A stretch of DNA of 64,000 nucleotides from Patescibacteria group bacterium (GCA_023380755.1 JAMCSD010000006.1:120385-184384); one strand, 5' to 3'. Counted from the first letter of the stretch, positions 1-55,940 are shown. Made by a program: numbers and translations. The notes: generated by a model not told the origin, from the letters alone.

Positions 1-775
1 AATTGGCCTCTTGGCGCACCCGCACCCATACCCCCGGTTGGACCGTAAAATTAACTTTTTTTTCGGCTATTGTTTCTTCGTCCTGGGTGGACACTCCGGC
101 GACTGATCCGCTGGTCACCGTTGTCACCGGCGCCAAGGATATCTTATTACTCTCAAACAACCTTCCCTTTTCCGGCCGGATCGCCGAGTGTAGCAAGTAA
201 TCAGTCGTTACTCCGTATACTGCCATATCGGTAATTGAATTCTGATAACTGATCCGCCCCACCGCCGATACCATGGGTAGCACTAAGCTAACATGACCGA
301 TTTTGGTAAACTTTTCTAGGCTCGTATCGTTAATTCTATTTTTCACTGAATTTTGAGTCGTCACATCCGCCTGTTTCATCTCTTCCAGGCTCGCCACCCG
401 GGAAACCACTAATCTCTGCAAACCGTATCCCACCGACACCAAAAAAACAATGACACTAATCCCCACCGCCATTCCGGCAATAGTAATCACCGTTCGTGTC
501 TTTTTGGATTTCATGTTCCGCAAAGACAAATCAATTAAGTTTAACCGGCTGATTTCATTTTGATCCCGCTTGTCCAGCATCTCAAAGATTGGTTCAAACC
601 TTTGCCGAAAATCAGTTTTACTGCCCCGCTTAATAAAACGGGTCACATAATTCAATCCCACCGCCAGCGAATAGCTAAACAAAAGTAAGGTAAAACTAGC
701 CAACCGTCCGCTCCAGGCAGAGGCCTTTCGTATTCCATTTTTGGCTAAAATAATTGATTTACTTACTTTTGACAT
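1..775 (-). CDS. ABC transporter permease, FtsX/MacB-like. 5' partial in window: the C-terminus runs off the window start.
   Basis: Manual minus-strand translation gives MSKVSKSIILAKNGIRKASAWSGR... then LSLRNMKSKKTRTVITIAGMAVGISVIVFLVSVGYGLQ, the typical first transmembrane helix of FtsX/MacB permeases. The start overlaps the stop of the upstream ATPase gene. The ORF is absent from the supplied track because its stop lies outside the window. Confidence 0.55.
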   Translation of the reverse strand, partial: MSKVSKSIILAKNGIRKASAWSGRLASFTLLLFSYSLAVGLNYVTRFIKRGSKTDFRQRFEPIFEMLDKRDQNEISRLNLIDLSLRNMKSKKTRTVITIAGMAVGISVIVFLVSVGYGLQRLVVSRVASLEEMKQADVTTQNSVKNRINDTSLEKFTKIGHVSLVLPMVSAVGRISYQNSITDMAVYGVTTDYLLHSAIRPEKGRLFESNKISLAPVTTVTSGSVAGVSTQDEETIAEKKVNFTVQPGVWVRVRQEAN

Positions 776-44158: not shown

Positions 44159-44812
44159 ATGTGTGGTCGTTATACTCTTTATACCCCCGAGGCCTTGGCC
44201 GATCATTATCACTTAGGTAATGATCTTAAGTTAGCTCCTGCCTACAACGTGGCGCCGGGAGCTGCCCATCCGGTGGTCTTCCGTGAATCTGGTACCAATC
44301 TGATTCAGGAAATGCATTGGGGTCTGATTCCCTTTTGGGCCAAGGACCCGAGCATCGGCACCCGGCTCATCAATGCCCGGGCTGATTCTGCCGCCACCAA
44401 ACCCGCCTTCCGCTCCTCCTTTAAGAGCTGCCGCTGTTTAATTCCGGCCAATGGCTTTTATGAATGGTCCCCGGCGCGCCAACCTTATTATTACCATTTA
44501 CCTCACAGCCCCCTTTTTTCTTTAGCCGGTCTTTACGATATTTGGACCGATACCTTTGGTCGCGAAATGTACTCTTTTACCATTATTACCACCGACCCCA
44601 ACTCTTTAGTCAAAACCGTCCATGACCGGATGCCGGTTATCCTCTCTGCCGACAACGAGGACCTTTGGCTGCAGCCCCACACTTCCCCCGAAACCCTCGT
44701 CTCCTTATTTGCGCCCTTTCCGGAACATCAAATGAAGGCTTATCCCGTCGCCCCTTTAGTCAATAATCCCTCCAGCAACACCCCCGATCTTATCAAAGAA
44801 ATTCCCCATTAA
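44159..44812 (+). CDS. SOS-response-associated peptidase (SRAP/YedK) abasic-site processing protein
   Basis: N-terminal MCGRY with the catalytic Cys2 and family-typical length. Confidence 0.8.
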   Translation: MCGRYTLYTPEALADHYHLGNDLKLAPAYNVAPGAAHPVVFRESGTNLIQEMHWGLIPFWAKDPSIGTRLINARADSAATKPAFRSSFKSCRCLIPANGFYEWSPARQPYYYHLPHSPLFSLAGLYDIWTDTFGREMYSFTIITTDPNSLVKTVHDRMPVILSADNEDLWLQPHTSPETLVSLFAPFPEHQMKAYPVAPLVNNPSSNTPDLIKEIPH

Positions 44813-45216
44813 TCAAACCGTCCTTTTAGGGTAGCCAAATATTTTTGCGCCATTCCTACCGTCCCCACTATCACCCCCGCCTTCATCACAAAATCGACTG
44901 ACCATCGCGGCTGCCGGGTTTCGTGCCAAATAATAATGAGTTTCAAGCATTTGTCTCCCGGCGCCTTAGTGTGGAATGCCAAAAAATAGCCGATTTCAAT
45001 CCAGGTTCCCTCCGATGGCGCCACCCCGGGATTAGCCAGCATTATATCCGCCCGTTTCACTGCCAATAAATCTTGAGGAAAAAAGGTGTCCGGGGAGCTT
45101 TGGTCCGCATCAATTTCCGGGTCAAAAAAATCAAACCCTGGCGTTTTTTTGATTTCATCCTTCCAGTGTTCGTGGTAGGCATTCCATTGCCCCGCCAAAT
45201 AAACCATCGGTGCCAT
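44809..45216 (-). CDS. Nucleoside 2-deoxyribosyltransferase-like protein
   Basis: VYLAGQW (compare YLAGPF) and GTWIEIGYF (compare GTAFEIGYA). Confidence 0.45.
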   Translation of the reverse strand: MAPMVYLAGQWNAYHEHWKDEIKKTPGFDFFDPEIDADQSSPDTFFPQDLLAVKRADIMLANPGVAPSEGTWIEIGYFLAFHTKAPGDKCLKLIIIWHETRQPRWSVDFVMKAGVIVGTVGMAQKYLATLKGRFD

Positions 45217-45258
45217 AATTAATTTTACCCCAAACCAAGCGTAAATTACCGAAAATAA

Positions 45259-45501
45259 TTAGATAAGAGGGGACACAAAGCCTTCTTTAGCAAACACCCA
45301 TCCCTCGTTCATTAAGCTAGAAATCCGTCTACAAATTGTTTCTGTGGCAAATTCTTCTCCTAACCTAGCTGCAATTCTTTCATAAACCGCGCCAACCGTC
45401 ACCGGGTCATGGTTGCGCAACCCAATATTAAGGAGCCGCATTGTATCGGCATTCCACTGAATTAGTTCATCCATCGGAGATTTCATTAATATTTCATTCA
45501 T
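45259..45501 (-). CDS. Hypothetical small protein (80 aa), possibly HTH-like
   Basis: Clean ORF with no confident motif. Confidence 0.35.
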   Translation of the reverse strand: MNEILMKSPMDELIQWNADTMRLLNIGLRNHDPVTVGAVYERIAARLGEEFATETICRRISSLMNEGWVFAKEGFVSPLI

Positions 45502-45628
45502 GCTCTAGTATATCAGTTCACCGACTTTGATATTTTCCCTATCTTTCTGTATAATAAACCTCTAAGAACCAAAAGCACTGGCGCTTTCAGGGTTTAGGAG
45601 AGTTTTTGCACCTTAAAAGGAGATTAAT

Positions 45629-46624
45629 ATGTCAAAATTAGTGGCCGAAATTAACAAACGGAAGGTTTACTCAGATAAGGAAGTTCGAGCCATCGTCGAC
45701 ACCAAAGTCTACTTTGTCGATGGTAGTTGGTGCGATGTCGCCACCGGTGAAACCGTCAACAACGGCCCTGGTTCTATAAGCTTCGATAATCCAGGTGCTA
45801 CCGCTGAAAAGATCACTGTCGGCCCAACCCCCTTCATGGCTAGTTCTTTAGAAGTTCGTGGCGTAATAGCCGATGTCGAAATCAATGTCAAATCTAGTCC
45901 CACCATCGAGGTCGAAATTACGGGTCCGAAAAAGGAAGTCGAGGCCATCAAGGTCGCCAAAGTTGGGGATACGGTCGTCGTCGAAAGCGAGGATCGCGAC
46001 ACCGGCTTTTCCAGAAGCCAGGGGACGACAGTCATTGCTGGCAGTGGTAACGTGGTGACTCGTATTGGTAGGGCCCGTGGTATGGTTATTTCCGGTGATC
46101 TGGTCATGGGTCGTCGGCGGACGGTCATTTCCACCGGAGATATGTATGTCTCGGGCGATAATGTCATTCTCTCCGGAGGCGGCGAGGCCAGCACCAAGGT
46201 CATCATCGGTGTGCCTCAAAAGACGGGTGTCACCGTTACCAAGGTTACCGGTAATACCGTTATCGGCGATACCCAAGGTCGGGTGTCCGTCAGTGGTAAC
46301 AATGGTGAAATGAGGATTGGTCGTGTTGGCCCTGCCAAACTTGGAGTTTCCGGTAGTAGTGACATTAGCGTCAAAGAAGTCACTGGCTCCATGCTCGACA
46401 TCCGTATCATGGGTTCTGGCGATATCCGGATCGAAGCTGGTCAAGTGGATCAGTTGTCGGTCGAAGTCATGGGCTCCGGTGATGCCCGCTTTCATGGCCG
46501 CGCCACTGACAGCAACCTAAGCATCATGGGTTCCGGCGACATTTGGGTGGCCCATTCGGTCAACAAGCCAGTCGAAGATGTCATGGGCTCAGGGGATATT
46601 CACGTTAGTCGAGTTGGCAATTAA
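45629..46624 (+). CDS. DUF2807/DUF4097 (GIN-domain) beta-helical repeat protein
   Basis: Periodic V/I-x-G-SGD-I/A repeats (MGSGDIRI, VMGSGDARF, IMGSGDIWV, VMGSGDIHV). The gene lies in the GC-elevated block. Confidence 0.5.
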   Translation: MSKLVAEINKRKVYSDKEVRAIVDTKVYFVDGSWCDVATGETVNNGPGSISFDNPGATAEKITVGPTPFMASSLEVRGVIADVEINVKSSPTIEVEITGPKKEVEAIKVAKVGDTVVVESEDRDTGFSRSQGTTVIAGSGNVVTRIGRARGMVISGDLVMGRRRTVISTGDMYVSGDNVILSGGGEASTKVIIGVPQKTGVTVTKVTGNTVIGDTQGRVSVSGNNGEMRIGRVGPAKLGVSGSSDISVKEVTGSMLDIRIMGSGDIRIEAGQVDQLSVEVMGSGDARFHGRATDSNLSIMGSGDIWVAHSVNKPVEDVMGSGDIHVSRVGN

Positions 46625-46795
46625 TCTCGTTAGTTCCTAAACCGCTTGGGTTTTTGATTATCATAATCACTGACCCCGGCGGTTTTTTTTGTTTAAAAAT
46701 TACCTGCACCCATACGGCAAAAACTAAGATATTGTTTACCAGCATTTGGTACCCTTTTTCTTAATCTTTGCCCGTATGGGTGTAACTGTCGTCTT

Positions 46796-47143
46796 TTACC
46801 ACTTCGGGATTTCGACGACGACTTCGCCATCTGGATCCTGGAGCACTATCCTGACAGCGTTTTTTTGGCTGTCCCTTTGGGTCAGATTAGTAAAATTCTT
46901 TCCGATCCACAACAGGCGGCACCAGATATTCCCGACCACTCTCACTTCGGAATCCTCTGGGAAAAACACTGTCCTAACTGCGTGCTCATCTTCGACTACC
47001 AGCATATAGCCTTCGGCCACACTGACGCTGGTGACTAGTCCCTGATAAGCGAAATTTAGAATTGGGGTCTCCGGGGCACAAAGCTTGGCCAGTCTTTCGC
47101 GCTCCAACCGCAGCTCTTCAGCTGTCCACTTTCTCGGGTTCAT
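46796..47143 (-). CDS. Hypothetical protein (about 115 aa); start re-assigned to the ATG at 47143
   Basis: An AAGGGAGGA ribosome-binding site sits 7 nt upstream of the ATG at 47143-47141. The track start (47206) would place the N-terminus inside a structured RNA motif. The gene lies in the GC-elevated block. Confidence 0.45.
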   Translation of the reverse strand: MNPRKWTAEELRLERERLAKLCAPETPILNFAYQGLVTSVSVAEGYMLVVEDEHAVRTVFFPEDSEVRVVGNIWCRLLWIGKNFTNLTQRDSQKNAVRIVLQDPDGEVVVEIPKW

Positions 47144-47169
47144 GAAAATCCTCCCTTTTAAACGAACTT

Positions 47170-47222
47170 GAGTATTTCGTCCTTTCGGACTCATCGGGTC
47201 TGACACTCATCAGACGATACTC
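47170..47222 (-). ncRNA. Hammerhead-ribozyme-like motif (type III topology) in the intercistronic leader
   Basis: The minus-strand RNA reads GAGUAUC / GUCUGA-UGAGUG-UCAGAC / CCGAUGA / GUCC-GAAA-GGAC / GAAA / UACUC. It has stem III from its two ends, a stem I hairpin, a stem II hairpin GUCC-GAAA-GGAC, the GAAA core and an NUH site (AUC). It deviates from the core only at position 4 (C instead of U). A perfect CUGAUGAG copy also occurs in loop I. Confidence 0.4.
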
Positions 47223-47310
47223 ACCCCACACCTCGACCCCGAGACCAAAAAACTTGAAACCGCACGAGGGCTTCTTGTCTTTTGGTCTCTGTAGGCCGGG
47301 TGTTTAGAGC

Positions 47311-48585
47311 TTAGCTAGTGCGCGGATCGAAGTCCAACTTGACCCACTTACCGTTAACGAACATTTCAAACCACTTGTCCGCGACGAAGTCGTCATGGAC
47401 GTAATGACTCGAATCATGGCGGGGATCAGGGTCCCACACACGGCGAAGGTCACGATCCTCCAAGTTCGTCCCGCCCCATTCGAGGTGAGCCGGAAAAGGA
47501 TTCTTGCCTTCACGGTCCGAATGCTGCAGGAAGACCCGCATTTCCACGTCACCACTTCGGGCCATTTCCGTGAGCATTCGACGGAAGAGGGTGTAGCGGG
47601 TCCAGTAAATCGTGTGCTCTGCGGGAGACTCAACAAACACAATCCGTTCATCGCGAACCGGAGGTCGTAAGCCTTTGCCGGCAGGGAGTAGCTTCCAGAC
47701 CAGACGATTGTTCTCGAAGGCCATGGTCAAACCATTGGCCATCCACACCATTATCGAAACGGTCGCTTCACCATTCCAGTACTCCGCCTCCCCAGCCGTC
47801 AGGTTCCACTTGGCGACCCGAGCCGTATGCAGCTCTGCAAAGTCAACCTCTCTCGATGGCGAAGTGGCGGCTTTTGTCTTCGGTTCCTCGGTCTGAGCCT
47901 GTTGGCTTGCTCGCTTGGCGGCGATTTGGGCATCGCTCCATTCGGTCTCCAAGCACCAAGGCTTAGCCCGCAACACCGGATTGCCATTTCGGTCCGTGGT
48001 GTCGATGACGATGAACTTGACACCAGTGCCGACTCGGGGCGCATAATCCAACAAGCTAGGTGTCCAGGTTACTGACCCGTCGGCGCCCAAGGTGGGTAAG
48101 CCATGGTCATTCTGGTCGAAGAACACCTCATCGTTGGCGCTATTTACGTTGAAGAAACCCTGGGACATCCAGTGGAACGGGTACTTGAGTACCTTACCAT
48201 CGATTATGCCCCGAGGCGTTGTCGTCGCCGAGAGCGGCTGCTCCTTGGCCCAATCATAGTTTTTCTCAAAAGCCCAGAGTATTGCCGGCCGTCGATTGCC
48301 TTCTTCGGGCTTTTCGTCGCTGGCGATAAAGACTATCTGGTCACCAACTCTTGGCTCTGGTAGTACGTCATCAGGAAAGCTCGAGGGAACCCATTCCAGG
48401 TGATCGGCGACGGGGCGGATAAAGTAGCCCGCATTCCGGTGAATGAAGAATTCCTCCGGCATGCCGTCAGGTCCTTTGCTAATAGCATACCCAAAGTGTC
48501 GTCCGATGTTGTTCCAGCGGACAATACGTCCCACCTTCAAACCGTCGGTGCTGAACCACAAACTCTGCGGTTGATTCCTGCTCAT
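47311..48585 (-). CDS. Protein with N-terminal cold-shock domain followed by further OB-like segments and a long unknown C-terminal region (424 aa)
   Basis: Residues 18-55 (GRIVRWNNIGRHFGYAISKGPDGMPEEFFIHRNAG) match the CSD signature (GxVKWFNxxKGFGFI...DxFVH). AAAAGGAGA ribosome-binding site. GC-rich codon usage that is atypical for the window. Confidence 0.5.
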   Translation of the reverse strand: MSRNQPQSLWFSTDGLKVGRIVRWNNIGRHFGYAISKGPDGMPEEFFIHRNAGYFIRPVADHLEWVPSSFPDDVLPEPRVGDQIVFIASDEKPEEGNRRPAILWAFEKNYDWAKEQPLSATTTPRGIIDGKVLKYPFHWMSQGFFNVNSANDEVFFDQNDHGLPTLGADGSVTWTPSLLDYAPRVGTGVKFIVIDTTDRNGNPVLRAKPWCLETEWSDAQIAAKRASQQAQTEEPKTKAATSPSREVDFAELHTARVAKWNLTAGEAEYWNGEATVSIMVWMANGLTMAFENNRLVWKLLPAGKGLRPPVRDERIVFVESPAEHTIYWTRYTLFRRMLTEMARSGDVEMRVFLQHSDREGKNPFPAHLEWGGTNLEDRDLRRVWDPDPRHDSSHYVHDDFVADKWFEMFVNGKWVKLDFDPRTS

Positions 48586-48783
48586 CGGAAAGTCTCCTTT
48601 TTACGAACAAAGTTTACGAACATTTTGGTCACAATGACCTATCTGTCCCGACGTGACGTCGGGATACATAGGCCACTGCGACCTTAACTTAAGCTCTATA
48701 GGGTGTTAAAGAACTATTTGGAATATCCAAATATGTTATTATTATCTCACATTATAGGATAAAAATCAAACCCTGTTATATAA

Positions 48784-49692
48784 TTAACCATCAAAGTTTT
48801 ACTGTTAACCGCTGCCACTCTGATTGCCCTTTTTTATCTTAAGTTGTTTATTCCCGCCTCGGTCACTGCCCCGACCCAACCCCGGCCGTCACCCACTCTC
48901 ACTCCGACTCCCATCCCTAGCCCTACCTCTACTCCCACCCCGCTACCTACGTCCACCCCCCGTCCGACTCCTCGCCCTTCGCCCTCCGTAGTTTCAACAA
49001 AGGAGGGTCCCAAAACCGGCCAATCCGTCACCATCGATAGCGGCACCTTCACTGTCAACGTTATTTCAGCTAATTTAAATGACACCAAGGTAGTGGTGGA
49101 TACCGCCTCCGACTCCGATTGTGCCAACAACTGCCCGGTCAAATCTTTGGCTGAATTTGCCCAAAGGCGTGGCGCTATTGCTGCCATCAATGGGCCTTAT
49201 TTTTGCCCCGGAAGTTATCCCGCCTGTGCCGGCAAAACTAACTCCTTCGATACCCTCCTGATGAATCTCAACAAAACCTACTTTAATTCCAATAATAATG
49301 TTTACAGCCAAAACCCGGTCGCCATCTTTTCGGCTACTTCCCGTTTTGTCGCCGCTGGCCAGGAGTGGGGGAGAGATACTTCGGTAGATTCCGTCATTAT
49401 GAGCCGGCCCCTTTTAGTCTTTAATAACGAAGTCAAATTTTTTGGTAATGGTGACTCCAAGGAAACGGAAAAAGTCAGCCGGGCTTTTATTGGCGCCACC
49501 GGCTCGACAGTTTATATCGGCGTGGTTTACACTGCTTCGGTCGCCGACATGGCCAAAGTTTTACAAAAAATGGGTATCCAAAATGCCCTTAATTTAGACA
49601 GCTCTGGCTCCCTGGCTTTCTGGGCCAATGGCCGCTATCTCGCCGGTCCCGGCCGCAATACTCCTTTTGGCATTCTTTTAGTCAAGCGCTAA
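48784..49692 (+). CDS. Secreted phosphodiester-glycosidase-family (DUF2233/NAGPA-like) protein with Pro/Thr-rich linker
   Basis: The hallmark ALNLDSSGS (compare NLDGGGS) and AINGPYF (compare INGGFF) motifs are present. The track start (TTG at 48844) is probably too far downstream, because the in-frame upstream extension from 48784 encodes a signal/TM segment LLLTAATLIALFYL. Confidence 0.5.
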   Translation, partial: LTIKVLLLTAATLIALFYLKLFIPASVTAPTQPRPSPTLTPTPIPSPTSTPTPLPTSTPRPTPRPSPSVVSTKEGPKTGQSVTIDSGTFTVNVISANLNDTKVVVDTASDSDCANNCPVKSLAEFAQRRGAIAAINGPYFCPGSYPACAGKTNSFDTLLMNLNKTYFNSNNNVYSQNPVAIFSATSRFVAAGQEWGRDTSVDSVIMSRPLLVFNNEVKFFGNGDSKETEKVSRAFIGATGSTVYIGVVYTASVADMAKVLQKMGIQNALNLDSSGSLAFWANGRYLAGPGRNTPFGILLVKR

Positions 49693-49700
49693 TTGATCTC

Positions 49701-49994
49701 TTGTCCTTTCGGGTTTTATTCGGGTATACTTATCTTATGAATCTCAAGGTCGATGTCCCGGTTGCCGTTACCTTATTATACGAGCCCAAAGGGGCCAAAA
49801 TCTGCCCTTTGGCCGTTCGCTGGGATGGCCGGGTTTACCGGATTAGCAAATTAGGCTTGCACCACACCTTCCGTGAGGGCCGCACCCTTTACCATGTTTT
49901 TTCCGTGGCTTCGGAAACCGCCTTTTTTCGTTTAGTTTTAAACACCGACAACTTATTTTGGCGCCTAACGGAGGTCTCTGATGGTGAATCCTAA
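49701..49994 (+). CDS. Small hypothetical protein translationally coupled to the Y-family polymerase (possible accessory factor)
   Basis: It overlaps the downstream polymerase gene by 14 nt. An ATG at 49737 is an alternative start. No recognised motif. Confidence 0.4.
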   Translation: MSFRVLFGYTYLMNLKVDVPVAVTLLYEPKGAKICPLAVRWDGRVYRISKLGLHHTFREGRTLYHVFSVASETAFFRLVLNTDNLFWRLTEVSDGES

Positions 49995-51249
49995 GCCGGT
50001 CATTGGACTGCCCTTCAACCAAAAGCCTTCCACCCTGCTCCATATCGACCTTAATTCCTGCTTTGCCACCATTGAGCAGCAGGCCAATCCCTTGCTCCGC
50101 GGCCGGCCCATTGCCGTGGCGGCCTACACTACTCCTTCCGGCTGTATCTTGGCCCCATCGGTGGAGGCCAAACGCCTCGGCGTTAAGGTCGGCATGCGGG
50201 TCAAAGAGGGGAAACTCTTGTGTCCGGACCTCCAAATCCTTGGCCCCGACCCCTGGAAATACCGCAATATTCATCTCCAGCTGAAGACCCTCCTTTCCCA
50301 ATACAGTGCCTCTGTAGTCCCTAAATCCATTGATGAATTTGTCGTCGACCTGGAGGGTTACCCCAGTTTTCAGTGGGGGGTTCAGACCGCCGCCCAAACT
50401 ATCAAAAATCGCATTAAACAGGAAATTGGCGACTGGCTGACGGTTTCCGTCGGCATCGGCCCCAACCGTTTTTTGGCCAAACTCGCCGCTGGCCTCAAAA
50501 AACCCGATGGCCTGGAAGAAATTAACTGCCAAAATTATTCTGATGTTTATCGCCACTTAACTTTAATGGATATTACCGGCATTAAAAAGGCCAATACTGC
50601 CCGCCTTAATTCTGTCGGCGTCTATACCGTCCTCGATTTTTACCGCGCCCCGGTTTCCGCTCTGCGCTCGGCTTTTCATTCTATTAACGGCTATTACTGG
50701 TACTTGCGCCTCCGTGGCTGGGAGATTGATGACGTAGATTTCGGCCGTAAAAGCTTTGGCAACATGTATTCTTTGCCGGAAACCAAAACTACTCCCGAGG
50801 AGCTTTCTCCCATTCTTCACAAACTGGTGGAAAAGTCGTCTGAGCGCATGCGGAGTGCTGGCTACTTTGCCCGCGGCGTCCATGTGGCCCTCCTTTATCG
50901 TGACCATTCTTTTTGGCATCATGGCCATGTCAGCCACGATCTCCTTTACGACCCCCGCGACGTTTACAAATCTGCCTTTCGCATTTTAACCGCCGCTCCC
51001 TACCGCAAACCGGTGGCCAACCTCGCCATTTCTTGTTTTGATTTACAAAAGACTGCCACCTGCCAACTCGATCTTTTCCGTGACCTTAATCGGCAAACCC
51101 GGTTGGTTGATGCTATTGATGATGTCAACCAGCGTTGGGGTAGCTTTGTCATTACTCCGGCGGCCATGTTGGCTGCCCGCGACCTGGTTCCCGACCGGAT
51201 TGCCTTTGGTGGCGTCAAAGAATTAGAGCAGTATATTTTGGCAAAATAA
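49981..51249 (+). CDS. Y-family DNA polymerase (DinB/UmuC-like)
   Basis: LLHIDLNSCFATIEQ (compare HVDMDCFFAAVE) and the catalytic SIDEFVVDLEG motif are present, with a C-terminal little-finger region. Confidence 0.75.
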   Translation: MVNPKPVIGLPFNQKPSTLLHIDLNSCFATIEQQANPLLRGRPIAVAAYTTPSGCILAPSVEAKRLGVKVGMRVKEGKLLCPDLQILGPDPWKYRNIHLQLKTLLSQYSASVVPKSIDEFVVDLEGYPSFQWGVQTAAQTIKNRIKQEIGDWLTVSVGIGPNRFLAKLAAGLKKPDGLEEINCQNYSDVYRHLTLMDITGIKKANTARLNSVGVYTVLDFYRAPVSALRSAFHSINGYYWYLRLRGWEIDDVDFGRKSFGNMYSLPETKTTPEELSPILHKLVEKSSERMRSAGYFARGVHVALLYRDHSFWHHGHVSHDLLYDPRDVYKSAFRILTAAPYRKPVANLAISCFDLQKTATCQLDLFRDLNRQTRLVDAIDDVNQRWGSFVITPAAMLAARDLVPDRIAFGGVKELEQYILAK

Positions 51250-51317
51250 CCCGATTTTGTGAGATAATACTCCGTCTTTTGATTTCGCACTTTCACATAC
51301 TAAGGAAGGTTATTTGT

Positions 51318-51731
51318 ATGTTGCAACAACTACTGTTCGCCACCCCCGATCGTCGCCAAACCGGTCAACTTTATTACTTAGCTTACAATTTGCCGGGAAA
51401 TCATATCTTTTTCACCGTTACAAAAAATGAGATAGTTGGAGTTGATTTTCGTGCTTTTGCCGTTGCTCAAATTAAAAGTGATCTAAAAATTCCTGAGTAC
51501 GCTCTCAACTACTTCTACTTTGAAATCTGTACTCACCGACTCTACCCAGAACTTCAATCAGGCGAATATCGGGTCAATATTTGTGTCCCCAGTCAACGAC
51601 ATGGTCGAAACATGGTCGACGTCTATCCGTTTACGAGTACTCTTACTCAAGGTCCGCTCACTTTCAACACCCACACCTTGTGGACGCTACCATTCGAAGT
51701 GACAAAAGAGTTTGCTGAGTTTATTGCCTAA
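51318..51731 (+). CDS. Hypothetical protein, paralog 1 of an unknown family
   Basis: AAGGAAGG ribosome-binding site. It shares motifs with the next gene (LWTLPFEVTKEFAEFI versus LWQLPKAVLHEFRTYI, and SGEYRVNICVPSQRH versus PGEYEAYYVFCQRRN). Confidence 0.45.
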   Translation: MLQQLLFATPDRRQTGQLYYLAYNLPGNHIFFTVTKNEIVGVDFRAFAVAQIKSDLKIPEYALNYFYFEICTHRLYPELQSGEYRVNICVPSQRHGRNMVDVYPFTSTLTQGPLTFNTHTLWTLPFEVTKEFAEFIA

Positions 51732-51739
51732 GGAGTCAC

Positions 51740-52369
51740 ATGAGAATCATTAAATCGGAGCTTCTGCCGGCTAATGCCAGCCTTGTGGTTTACAGCCGCT
51801 ACCTCGATCAAATTTTCTTTACTGGCTTGTCCCCCTTTGGCCGGGCCATGTCCACGGTCAATCAAGCCGAAGAAATTATCATTGCTCTTTGCCAGCAGGA
51901 AAGGCTTGATCTTCACGGCACGATGTTTTTTGACCTCCGGACCCATCTTCAATATGACTATTTGCGCCCCGGAGAGTATGAAGCTTATTATGTTTTTTGC
52001 CAGCGCCGCAATCTCCACGTTAGCCTCCACTGGCAGCTTATGTCAGCTAACACCGACCGCTTTAAAACCCGTGACCTTTGGCAACTTCCTAAGGCCGTTC
52101 TCCATGAATTTCGTACCTACATCTTTGCTCCCCGCTGGGGTGAGGAAGTGACCCTCAACCTCGTCGATTGGATTGCCGGACTGACTCCCGATGAAGTTGA
52201 AAAGGAAATAAATACTCTCGTCCAGTCTGCCAATCTGCAACTCCAACCATCGGATAAAGAAACCACTGCTATCCAGTTGCGGCTCGCCCTGCGCCATTTT
52301 TTCGAAAATCCCTCACGTTACTCTCATTTACCTACCGTTTCGGCAGCCTTAGCCCCGATCCCTCTTTAG
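51740..52369 (+). CDS. Hypothetical protein, paralog 2 of the same unknown family
   Basis: See paralog 1. Tandem arrangement with an 8-nt intergenic gap. Confidence 0.45.
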   Translation: MRIIKSELLPANASLVVYSRYLDQIFFTGLSPFGRAMSTVNQAEEIIIALCQQERLDLHGTMFFDLRTHLQYDYLRPGEYEAYYVFCQRRNLHVSLHWQLMSANTDRFKTRDLWQLPKAVLHEFRTYIFAPRWGEEVTLNLVDWIAGLTPDEVEKEINTLVQSANLQLQPSDKETTAIQLRLALRHFFENPSRYSHLPTVSAALAPIPL

Positions 52370-54465: not shown

Positions 54466-55446
54466 ATGAACCGCAAGAATAGTTTGACCCTGTTTGCCCT
54501 TTCGCTCGTCATCGCTTTGCTCGCTGCCTGTGGCTCTCCGGCTCAAACCGCCCTCGGTTTGTCCGCTGGTTTGAAAACCGCTTATATAGAAGCGGATACG
54601 GTCTACAGTCAGCTAGTCACCCAAGAAACCACCATCGACGCCGATTACCAAGTCTGGATGGAATCGTACAGTACGATGTTGGCTGGTGCCGGGGATCAGC
54701 TCACGCTGGTCAACCAGTGCTTCAGCAACACCGCCACAGTGATTGCCCAGGCAGCTAATAGCGTTTTCTCCAAGGATGCCAACGGTAACCCCGTTTCGGC
54801 AGCCGATGAAAACAAGGCCTTCATCAATGCCTTAGGTACGGGTGGCTCACTTTATGCCGGGAACGTTGACAAATGCCAGCAAGCCGCCTTGGATCTTATG
54901 TCCTATGTCCGCGTCAAGCGTGACAGCTTGCTTGGTGCTCGGACCAAGATCATTGACGAACTTCGTGCCTACGACTTGAGCCAGGTACGCAATCTCAAAA
55001 TTGCCACGGTGATGCACTTCTACAACCAGTACGGGCCTGAACTGGCACAACTGGAACAGAAGGGCGAAACCGCCCTCCTCGATGCGGTCGCTTCCGGTGC
55101 CGGCCTCCAGCCGATGCCGATTACCTTCATTGGTTTTCCGACTTCGGCGTTGAAGGTTGAGTCCCGCAGTCAGGATATCTGTTCGTATTATTACGGCCTG
55201 TATACCGGCGAAACCAAGACGCCCCAGAATCGGAATAAGGAGTTGTACTTAACGGATGACTGGAATCCGGCTTTAAAGAGCTGTCAGCTCTATCGTTACT
55301 CGGCTTATGAGTACATGAGCCGGGCGTTCCTGACTCAGCAAGCCTCAGTCCGCATTGATTGTGGACAAGATGCCGGAATTCAGGACAAAATGAATCCCGA
55401 TTGCACCGTCTCTTCACCGACCGCCGAACCCACCAAGACCAAGTAA
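54466..55446 (+). CDS. Lipoprotein, hypothetical (326 aa)
   Basis: Signal peptide with lipobox LLAACGSP, immediately downstream of the Cys-rich protein. Confidence 0.5.
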   Translation: MNRKNSLTLFALSLVIALLAACGSPAQTALGLSAGLKTAYIEADTVYSQLVTQETTIDADYQVWMESYSTMLAGAGDQLTLVNQCFSNTATVIAQAANSVFSKDANGNPVSAADENKAFINALGTGGSLYAGNVDKCQQAALDLMSYVRVKRDSLLGARTKIIDELRAYDLSQVRNLKIATVMHFYNQYGPELAQLEQKGETALLDAVASGAGLQPMPITFIGFPTSALKVESRSQDICSYYYGLYTGETKTPQNRNKELYLTDDWNPALKSCQLYRYSAYEYMSRAFLTQQASVRIDCGQDAGIQDKMNPDCTVSSPTAEPTKTK

Positions 55447-55457
55447 ATACTCTCGCT

Positions 55458-55520
55458 CACTAGCGCTCGACCTGAAGGGGTTTTCCTTTCGAGAACCCCT
55501 TCTCTTTGACCGCGCTAGTG
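55458..55520 (+). terminator. Nested double-hairpin terminator-like element
   Basis: An outer 9-bp stem cactagcgc/gcgctagtg encloses an inner hairpin gaaggggtt/aaccccttc. Confidence 0.4.
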
Positions 55521-55655
55521 TGTCTGTCCTTCTACAAATGTGCGTTTGTACTGATGAGACCAAAAGGTCGAAAAGGATACACAGTAGATATATAATAAGT
55601 TGTTCCTTAAAAGTCTTGTTGGAATGCATTGATATATACACACCCAAAGGAGTTC

Positions 55656-55940
55656 ATGACGATGGAACTAAAGAAAGGTACCGTCCTCTGGTGCCGCAAT
55701 GGTAACGGATCAGTCAAGGTTGATGGCCGGTGTACCGCTTTTAGCCTTACCAACTATCAAATTTTACGCGCTGAAAATGACCACCTTGTCTGGCAAGCTT
55801 CGCAACGACCACCGGTCGCACCCGACGCATATGAAACCATTTGTCTTGAGCAGGATGACGTAACCGGCAAGGTCCTCCATTGGACCTCGAAGTATGTCTA
55901 CGACATTGCGGTTGCGCCATTGCTATCACAAAATAAATAA
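55656..55940 (+). CDS. Hypothetical small protein (94 aa)
   Basis: AAAGGAG ribosome-binding site. No recognised motif. Confidence 0.4.
   Translation: MTMELKKGTVLWCRNGNGSVKVDGRCTAFSLTNYQILRAENDHLVWQASQRPPVAPDAYETICLEQDDVTGKVLHWTSKYVYDIAVAPLLSQNK

Follow-up and report, generated by a model that had tools for sequence, protein, structure and literature searches.

Between two minus-strand genes of a Patescibacteria group bacterium, encoding proteins of 424 and 115 amino acids (aa), lie a long hairpin and a type III hammerhead ribozyme, here called HH1, which we analysed within a 64,000-nucleotide (nt) stretch of DNA (the window; all coordinates are counted from its first letter). The hammerhead is the best-supported functional element of the locus. 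It was underplayed in a first-pass annotation of the same DNA, which had noticed a hairpin and a hammerhead-like element between the two genes; both are upheld by the predicted fold, by the Rfam model RF00008 and by a class model, R1, described below. The two open reading frames (ORFs) are found where that annotation had placed them, and the independent gene calls of the public assembly are identical to our ORFs of 331, 424 and 115 aa; in the public record the 424-aa and 115-aa products are both named hypothetical protein, 'Patescibacteria group bacterium'. The gene for the 331-aa protein is convergent with the minus-strand pair. By its Pfam matches this protein is a clear DUF2807/DUF4097 member, 'toastrack'-type and beta-rich (PF10988, DUF2807, 46.1 bits against a cutoff of 24.2, E = 6e-12; PF13349, DUF4097, 26.3 bits against 22.9, E = 6e-6); the precomputed annotation lists the same two families, and MGSGD motifs are repeated along the protein, their GSGD units being seen as nucleotide repeats in a repeat search, so that the earlier description of a DUF2807-type GSGD-repeat protein holds.

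The start codon of the 115-aa gene, the downstream cistron of the pair, lies 7 nt past a GGGAGG ribosome-binding site, which itself starts about 15 nt past HH1 (28 nt from HH1 to the ATG). A longer form of 136 aa starting at GTG was rejected, as it would overlap the ribozyme and as a length of 115 aa follows from the ATG with its ribosome-binding site and is given in both public annotations. The only match of the 115-aa protein among 5.8 billion proteins is itself (a Patescibacteria bacterium hypothetical protein of 115 aa), and it matches nothing in Pfam, PHROGs, PADLOC or the PDB sequences. The features of the locus are collected in Table 1.

Table 1. Features in and around the locus (window coordinates, or residues for parts of the 424-aa protein).
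Feature	Position	Strand	Basis or remark
Type III hammerhead HH1	47171-47221	-	Rfam RF00008, fold, class model R1, motif scan
Long imperfect hairpin, 88 nt	47223-47310	-	Fold, inverted repeat, terminator-like site
424-aa protein gene	47311-48585	-	ORF list; three modules and C-terminal domain
424-aa protein, modules	~residues 17-113, 141-220, 260-343		Three, tandem, degenerate, cold-shock-derived
424-aa protein, C-terminal domain	~residues 344-424		Motifs W.G.NL..R.L..VWDP ... WFE ... W ... DPR
115-aa orphan ORF, downstream cistron	46796-47143	-	ATG at 47143, GGGAGG site
Second hammerhead HH2	55527-55577	+	Motif scan, R1 70.2 bits, RF00008 38.2 bits, fold
Extra DNA between SRAP and the 97-aa/DinB pair	44813-49700		tblastn synteny, 80 DinB loci
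SRAP	44159-44812		Conserved neighbour left of extra DNA
97-aa ORF	49701-49994	+	Conserved neighbour right of extra DNA
DinB-like gene	49981-51249	+	Conserved neighbour right of extra DNA
DUF2807/DUF4097 protein gene, 331 aa	45629-46624	+	ORF list, Pfam
Inverted repeat in the convergent DUF2807/115-aa spacer	46707-46782		16-nt arms, 88% complementary
Near-perfect palindrome	48627-48683	-	Repeat search; 28-nt arms, 1-nt spacer
Promoter-like hexamer pairs in the AT-rich spacer between the divergent 424-aa and NAGPA genes	48741-48808	-	Consensus scan

The hammerhead and its compact class

The hairpin begins right after the TAA stop codon of the 424-aa gene (47311-47313) and abuts HH1. It includes an inner hairpin (47256-47274) followed by AAGUUUUUUGG, a terminator-like arrangement, and the region 47140-47320 folds with -68.8 kcal/mol (z = -5.1). 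The minimum-energy fold of HH1 is a three-way junction in which loops cap stems I and II and stem III stays open. Stem III is formed by GAGUAU/AUACUC (47169-47223 with its extension), stem I by GUCUGAU-GAGU-GUCAGAC, with 7 base pairs (bp) and a GAGU loop, and stem II by GUCC-GAAA-GGAC, after which comes GAA. In the core, CCGAUGA / GAA, the replacement of U4 by C is the sole departure among 13 conserved positions. The A15.1-U16.1 and G10.1-C11.1 pairs and a nucleotide other than G at H17, required by our motif scan, are present; H17 is C17, and the predicted cleavage site lies between 47216 and 47215. HH1 aligns over its full length both to RF00008, with 37.0 bits (E = 3e-6 for 801 bases searched; the gathering score is 48.5), and to R1, with 62.0 bits (E = 8e-18). 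A scan of the whole window with Rfam at the gathering threshold reported no hammerhead.

The second hammerhead, HH2, is 8 kb from HH1 and has the canonical core CUGAUGA, with predicted cleavage between 55532 and 55533. Its arrangement is like that of HH1: it is preceded by a hairpin (55457-55521) and lies between a gene for a 326-aa lipoprotein-like orphan (54466-55446) and a 94-aa orphan ORF (55656-55940). The motif scan, covering the window and 89 loci (1.37 Mb), gave three hits, against none in 30 shuffles: HH1, HH2 and a third, L068 (4838-4925, plus strand), in a related Microgenomates genome, where hairpin and hammerhead follow the gene of a 250-aa membrane protein. Each of the three ribozymes comes just past the stop codon of a gene and a long hairpin, and because the next gene in L068 is convergent, the constant feature is gene, hairpin and ribozyme, not the downstream cistron. 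The three hairpins share no sequence, and the idea that they are copies of a repeat element was discarded.

A pattern restricted to the core and stem II, CYGAYGAGWCCNAAAGGWCGAAA, matches at least 120 stretches each in metagenome contigs and in IMG/VR viral contigs. The same compact architecture is found in 115 of the 123 metagenome matches listed, including stems I and III, which are outside the search pattern; in it, stem-loop I measures 18 nt, is closed by a U.G pair and has a GNGU-type loop, and stem-loop II measures 12 nt. Among 124 aligned members, collected with at least 4 bp required in stems I and III, 99.4% of the cells are paired, as compared with 33-44% when the partners are slid, and 15 of the 17 pairs change on both sides. 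R1 is the covariance model derived from this alignment, and it has exactly two hits in the window, HH2 (70.2 bits) and HH1, and one hit in 1.29 Mb of related DNA from the candidate phyla radiation (CPR). Since RF00008 scores even the canonical HH2 at no more than 38.2 bits, whereas R1 gives the two ribozymes 62 and 70 bits, the sub-threshold Rfam scores appear to reflect how the model fits the compact subclass. This has consequences for annotation, as the gathering threshold appears to miss an abundant group of ribozymes.

The layout of the class was surveyed in 266 members listed, from metagenome and IMG/VR contigs (L090-L329). The gene on the 5' side is co-oriented with the ribozyme in 160 cases versus 16, and that on the 3' side in 128 versus 31. 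The 80 nt upstream have a mean z of -3.0 to -3.5, as against -0.3 to -1.4 downstream (Wilcoxon p = 3e-27), and the ribozyme follows the stop codon at a median of 32 nt in viral and 80 nt in metagenome contigs. Two or three hammerhead copies are present in many class loci. A structure-only scan, with no constraint on the core, returned 206 perfect cores and eight with a single mismatch, seven of which are U4C; the recurrence of this commonest core variant in members with unrelated stems suggests that it is tolerated. One unrelated family of about 320 aa recurs as the upstream neighbour (13 members, with motifs FTIGFE.EKN ... SCG.EA.THVLPL), and it is the sole recurrent flanking family.

The ribozyme itself is of a known kind in a known kind of position. 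The likeness to type III hammerheads (RF00008, clan CL00010; PMC3088659) extends to the three-helix junction with an open stem III, the core C3-A9 and G12-A14, the A15.1-U16.1 and G10.1-C11.1 pairs and C17, as well as to the intergenic location between co-directional genes and the presence of several copies within a few kb. The differences are the C at core position 4 of HH1, the scores of 37-38 bits for both window copies as opposed to 48.5 for gathering, their membership of a very compact subclass, and a CPR host with no visible prophage. Clustered hammerheads of bacteria and phages flank genes, and the processing of long polycistronic transcripts has been proposed for them (Perreault et al. 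2011, PMC3088659); according to a 2019 review, this role of the bacterial and phage genomic hammerheads is still unproven. Our additions are modest. They consist of the coupling with an upstream hairpin, which in its tightness we did not find described in the literature on bacterial and phage hammerheads that we examined, and of the presence of the ribozyme in a CPR chromosome without visible prophage; a literature search for hammerheads together with CPR or Patescibacteria found no paper combining both.

The 424-aa protein and its relatives

The first-pass annotation gave the upstream gene product a canonical N-terminal cold-shock domain followed by a 200-aa unknown C-terminus. Its view of an unusual protein fusion related to cold-shock proteins survives, in that several modules are homologous to them by profile comparison with hhalign; the canonical domain does not, as the 424-aa protein has no match to the Pfam cold-shock family (PF00313) at E <= 0.1, nor do its last 173 residues at E <= 0.01. 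In a word-indexed search of 5.8 billion proteins it matches only itself. An exhaustive HMMER search of 1.84 billion representatives gave four matches to residues 279-424, proteins of 170-180 aa (E = 1e-18 to 1e-4), and a fifth that was discarded as a spurious repeat match. After profile search the family comprises about 10 clusters among the 5.8 billion proteins, of 170-215 aa, some of them named 'cold shock domain-containing protein'; all nine members scanned match PF00313 (best E = 5.8e-12). Members have an N-terminal module of about 95 aa, made of the cold-shock barrel and a conserved extension (P.xGD.IVF ... PW ... Y..A), and a C-terminal domain of about 85 aa, in which the alignments show invariant tryptophans and a near-invariant DPR-type C-terminal motif.

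Each third of the 424-aa protein was compared by hhalign with a profile built solely from the N-terminal modules of 12 homologs, giving probabilities of 96.4% (E = 1e-9), 73.8% (E = 3e-5) and 93.6% (E = 2e-7) for modules 1, 2 and 3. Because each third matches this profile, the protein is, as judged from its sequence, a series of three tandem, progressively degenerate cold-shock-derived modules with the C-terminal domain of the family, and the supposed unknown C-terminus resolves into the third degenerate module and the conserved domain of about 85 aa. Compared directly, modules 1 and 2 share 30% identity across 54 aa (E = 8e-4). The protein would best be explained by tandem triplication of the N-terminal module followed by its decay, and on these alignments it is a new architecture of a very rare and uncharacterised cold-shock-fusion family. 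Its residues ~250-424 align end to end with the 170-215-aa members (P0003, P0004, P0006-P0013) at 23-34% identity, with several tryptophans among the invariant residues and with the near-invariant DPR-type motif; the members, in contrast, have one N-terminal module instead of three and lie in different contexts, with no hammerhead nearby.

Similarity to the CspA family rests on the PF00313 matches of the nine scanned relatives, on RNP-like motifs in module 1 and on the best fold match. Unlike the cold-shock barrel of about 70 aa, the modules have about 95-110 aa with the conserved extension, the whole protein escapes the Pfam model, and the modules are followed by a domain with no significant match in the fold libraries. 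The tandem modules recall eukaryotic Unr/CSDE1, which is a protein with multiple cold-shock domains. Aromatic motifs resembling RNP1 and RNP2 (HFGYAI, FFIH) can be made out by eye in module 1 alone, modules 2 and 3 having lost most of these aromatic residues; because module 1 keeps the motifs, the protein most likely binds single-stranded nucleic acid, probably RNA. AlphaFold2 run on the single sequence gave an unusable model (mean predicted local distance difference test, pLDDT, 36). With the family alignment, residues 252-424 reached a pLDDT of 74.6, and 85-93 across most of the C-terminal domain. For the N-terminal part of this model, a region of low confidence, the best Foldseek match in the PDB is CspA, with a probability of 0.87 and a weak E of 0.14, and the viral fold library gives S1-motif and cold-shock-domain-annotated proteins with similarly weak E-values. 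The C-terminal domain has no significant match in the PDB or viral fold libraries.

The homologs occupy varied chromosomal contexts, two of them beside DUF8173 genes. One, a 188-aa member in an uncultivated bacterium (L003, 6001-6567), is located between secY and adk in a ribosomal-protein cluster, a placement that hints at a housekeeping, RNA-related role of the family. No hammerhead was found near the loci of family homologs, and the family profile had no match among 185 ribozyme-flanking ORFs, a set that lacks a positive control as it holds a shadow ORF in place of the 424-aa gene of the window; a general link between cold-shock-like genes and the hammerhead class is thus unsupported. Nor could two further candidates be attached to the module. 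The 94-aa ORF after HH2, with some likeness to a single cold-shock-like module by eye and in weak pairwise comparison, ranked fifth of 5857 ORF segments with E = 0.44 and was rejected, and comparison of the 115-aa protein with the module gave no support for a relationship.

Upstream of the 424-aa gene, the palindrome of 57 nt is positioned 42-98 nt before the start codon, probably within its 5' untranslated leader, and the leader (48575-48760, minus strand) folds with z = -6.9. Such a structured leader is reminiscent of the leaders of cold-shock genes. Three overlapping minus-strand promoter-like sites fall in the divergent spacer; these are consensus matches only, and over the region 5 were found where shuffles lead one to expect 3.0.

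Composition and synteny of the surrounding DNA

The first-pass annotation had presented positions 45629-48665 as a block of about 55% GC, bounded on the left by an abrupt shift in GC and codon usage, returning to background after 48590, flanked by AT-rich spacers and, from its composition, suggestive of horizontal acquisition. The block is indeed the highest-GC 3-kb stretch of the window, about 2.4 standard deviations over the mean of 3-kb windows, with a GC content of 52.5% (46.6% for the window). Past the supposed right edge the excess persists, at 51.7% from NAGPA to DinB (48844-51249), and it is seen also to the left, in SRAP together with the NDT-like gene (50.7%), such that 44159-51249 as a whole is the highest-GC 7.1-kb stretch of the window. 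The AT-rich spacers exist, at 36-39% GC, and resemble ordinary AT-rich stretches between genes, in which the ribosome-binding sites and promoter-like matches are located. Codon typicality was measured as a leave-one-out synonymous-codon score over 61 window genes. The 424-aa and 115-aa genes have z of -1.5 and -1.3 (the third and fourth least typical of the 61), the DUF2807 and NAGPA genes +0.5 and +0.9; the GC content at third codon positions of the 424-aa gene, 0.647, is the window maximum, with three other genes at 0.62-0.64. Because the small GC excess continues into the neighbours and the DUF2807 and NAGPA genes have typical codons, there is no abrupt block-wide shift, and only the 424-aa/115-aa pair is mildly atypical in codon usage. 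As the conserved, native SRAP and DinB genes are as GC-rich as most of the block (51.5% and 52.1%), GC and codons do not appear to mark a discrete island; the block is a weak and ordinary compositional bump.

Synteny gave a clearer signal. We fetched 80 loci with the DinB-like gene from species-representative genomes and searched them by tblastn with the window proteins; the best DinB matches are 57-72% identical and belong to the Microgenomates group (Shapirobacteria, Woesebacteria, WWE3 and others). The 97-aa ORF, which shares 14 nt with the beginning of the DinB-like gene and has no Pfam match, stands beside DinB in 78 of the 80 loci, which points to a conserved, unannotated partner of this translesion polymerase. 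SRAP is present in 16 loci and directly adjoins the 97-aa/DinB pair in all of them (on the same strand in 15, with a gap of less than 100 nt in 13), on its upstream or its downstream side depending on the relative. The window has 4889 nt between SRAP and the pair (49701-51249), a gap that holds six genes, encoding an NDT-like protein of 135 aa, an 80-aa ORF, the DUF2807, 115-aa and 424-aa proteins and an NAGPA-like protein, as well as HH1. That SRAP adjoins the pair in 16 of 16 relatives supports insertion or acquisition of extra, lineage-specific DNA of about 4-4.9 kb, of which the block would be the core. The proposal of horizontal acquisition therefore keeps its core, with boundaries wider than 45629-48665 and with composition lending it little weight. 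For genome scanning this is a caution: here, the evidence of transfer came from synteny and not from a GC content raised by 5-6 points in a genome of 47% GC.

The extra DNA resembles genomic islands and integrative elements in breaking a conserved adjacency and in carrying mostly orphan or accessory genes; it differs from them in the lack of an integrase, a tRNA target, convincing direct repeats or a clear compositional contrast. In agreement with the first-pass annotation, which saw no integrase or flanking repeats, no integrase-type Pfam family was found among the block and neighbouring genes scanned, Rfam at the gathering threshold found no tRNA gene in the window, and the repeat search found no convincing flanking or terminal repeats around the extra DNA. 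An exact 15-nt direct repeat, AAAAATCAAACCCTG, occurs twice in the window (45126-45140 and 48761-48775), its copies bracketing 3.6 kb, roughly the block of the first-pass annotation. It is probably due to chance, and a reading as an attachment site is unlikely because the copy on the left falls within an NDT-like domain that is intact (Pfam match at residues 5-83) and the flanks are unrelated. None of the ten genes around both ribozymes has a significant PHROGs match, the sole match being a marginal one of the NDT-like gene to the nucleoside 2-deoxyribosyltransferase family (E = 0.009), and PADLOC has zero matches among the six genes of the extra DNA; a prophage or a defence island was accordingly rejected as an identification of the locus.

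Interpretation of the locus

Taken together, these observations lead us to favour, with moderate confidence, the view that lineage-specific DNA has split an otherwise tightly linked SRAP/97-aa/DinB module in a Microgenomates-group (CPR) bacterium and that it carries a two-gene minus-strand unit with a hairpin and a hammerhead between its cistrons. The pair of 424-aa and 115-aa genes probably forms a single transcription unit; the consensus scan predicted no sigma-70-type promoter-like site between them. The likely role of the ribozyme would be to uncouple the two cistrons by self-cleavage, a function that has been proposed before. A transcript reading through the hairpin would fold HH1, which would cut itself after C17, leaving an upstream mRNA that ends in a stable hairpin and a 2',3'-cyclic phosphate, and a downstream mRNA that begins with a 5'-OH and the folded ribozyme body, a short distance ahead of the 115-aa ribosome-binding site. 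The two cistrons could then have separate stabilities and yields. With its U4C core, the cut would probably be slow or dependent on conditions; U4C lowers activity in vitro, yet a viroid variant with this change stays infectious (Perreault et al. 2011, PMC3088659).

Several points weigh against this view. Both hammerheads score under the Rfam gathering threshold, slow cutting in vitro is to be expected of the U4C core, and the inner hairpin with its U-run could terminate most transcripts ahead of the ribozyme. On the protein side, homology of module 2 is moderately supported, at 73.8%, and the AlphaFold2 model is poor over the region of module 3 (pLDDT 43-72). As to the surrounding DNA, the synteny comparison relied on distant relatives (DinB 57-72% identical), which show no synteny downstream of DinB either, so that the extra DNA could have built up stepwise or by rearrangement; how it was acquired we can only infer. 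Moreover, NAGPA-like genes occur near DinB in some lineages, which leaves the right end uncertain, at 49700 or, if NAGPA is native, at 48843.

It is also conceivable, although we think it unlikely, that HH1 is a decaying, inactive relic, that the hairpin is an ordinary intrinsic terminator and that the 115-aa gene is separately transcribed or silent. The strong loss of in vitro activity caused by U4C, the terminator-like inner hairpin with its U-run and the lack of homologs of the 115-aa ORF would all fit such a history. However, HH1 keeps all three stems and 12 of its 13 conserved core positions, U4C is by far the commonest core variant and turns up again in members whose stems are unrelated, the space between the genes has no predicted sigma-70-type promoter-like site, and the 115-aa gene has a strong ribosome-binding site at proper spacing.

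Similar doubt attaches to an origin in which the genes are native and fast-evolving, SRAP and DinB having been parted by local rearrangement and the GC differences reflecting only amino-acid composition and expression level. Orphan genes abound in CPR genomes. All relatives show poor synteny beyond the SRAP/97-aa/DinB module, SRAP changes sides with respect to the pair, NAGPA homologs exist elsewhere in related genomes, and the compositional signal is weak, all of which speak for a native origin. Against it stand the direct adjacency of SRAP and the pair wherever SRAP is present (16 of 16 loci) and the scattering of relatives of the 424-aa protein over unrelated contexts and lineages, which fits sporadic transfer.

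We judge it quite unlikely that the locus is the remnant of a prophage or another mobile element, with hammerheads left over from phage transcript processing. In its favour, IMG/VR viral contigs hold the class in abundance, prophages are a frequent location of published bacterial hammerheads, the window has two copies in its 64 kb where related chromosomal DNA has one in 1.29 Mb, and orphan genes stand beside both copies. The ten genes of the ribozyme area, however, are without significant PHROGs matches (the NDT-like one marginal), the six genes of the extra DNA are without PADLOC matches, integrase, Rfam tRNA and terminal repeats are missing from the scans described above, the two ribozymes have the conserved chromosomal DinB module between them, and the L068 example follows a membrane-protein gene with no phage context. 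Very unlikely, finally, is a discrete, horizontally acquired island of 3 kb from 45629 to about 48590-48665 recognisable by GC and codons, for which one could cite the highest-GC stretch, the third-position GC of the 424-aa gene, two orphans with mildly atypical codons and the bracketing 15-nt repeat, but which has to contend with a small GC excess running on through native SRAP and DinB, typical codons in the DUF2807 gene, a synteny break wider than the block, and a left repeat copy within an intact domain and with dissimilar flanks.

Returning to the reading of an uncoupled two-cistron unit, the locus offers a simple test case for the role of hammerheads, with two small genes, a hairpin and a natural U4C ribozyme, for which the canonical HH2, 8 kb away, can serve as an internal control. 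With gene, hairpin, ribozyme and gene following one another consistently over the class members surveyed, the idea of differential stability after cleavage is directly testable. A far-reaching extension, which we offer as speculation of low probability, is that hairpin and hammerhead form a general 'punctuation mark' making mRNA ends in phages and some CPR bacteria, in which case a ribozyme-made, hairpin-protected 3' end would exist beside or instead of intrinsic termination; the multi-module RNA binder encoded upstream might then act as a chaperone or repressor of the folding and cleavage of its own transcript, setting the ratio of the two cistrons.

Two minor features complete the description of the region. 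The inverted repeat in the spacer between the DUF2807 and 115-aa genes is probably a terminator for the converging transcripts. Beyond DinB lie two adjacent orphans of 150 aa (51279-51731, plus strand) and 209 aa (51740-52369, plus strand), which have no Pfam or PHROGs match and no counterpart near DinB in the 80 related loci, and which are paralogous to each other, with 32% identity over 71 aa (E = 2e-5).

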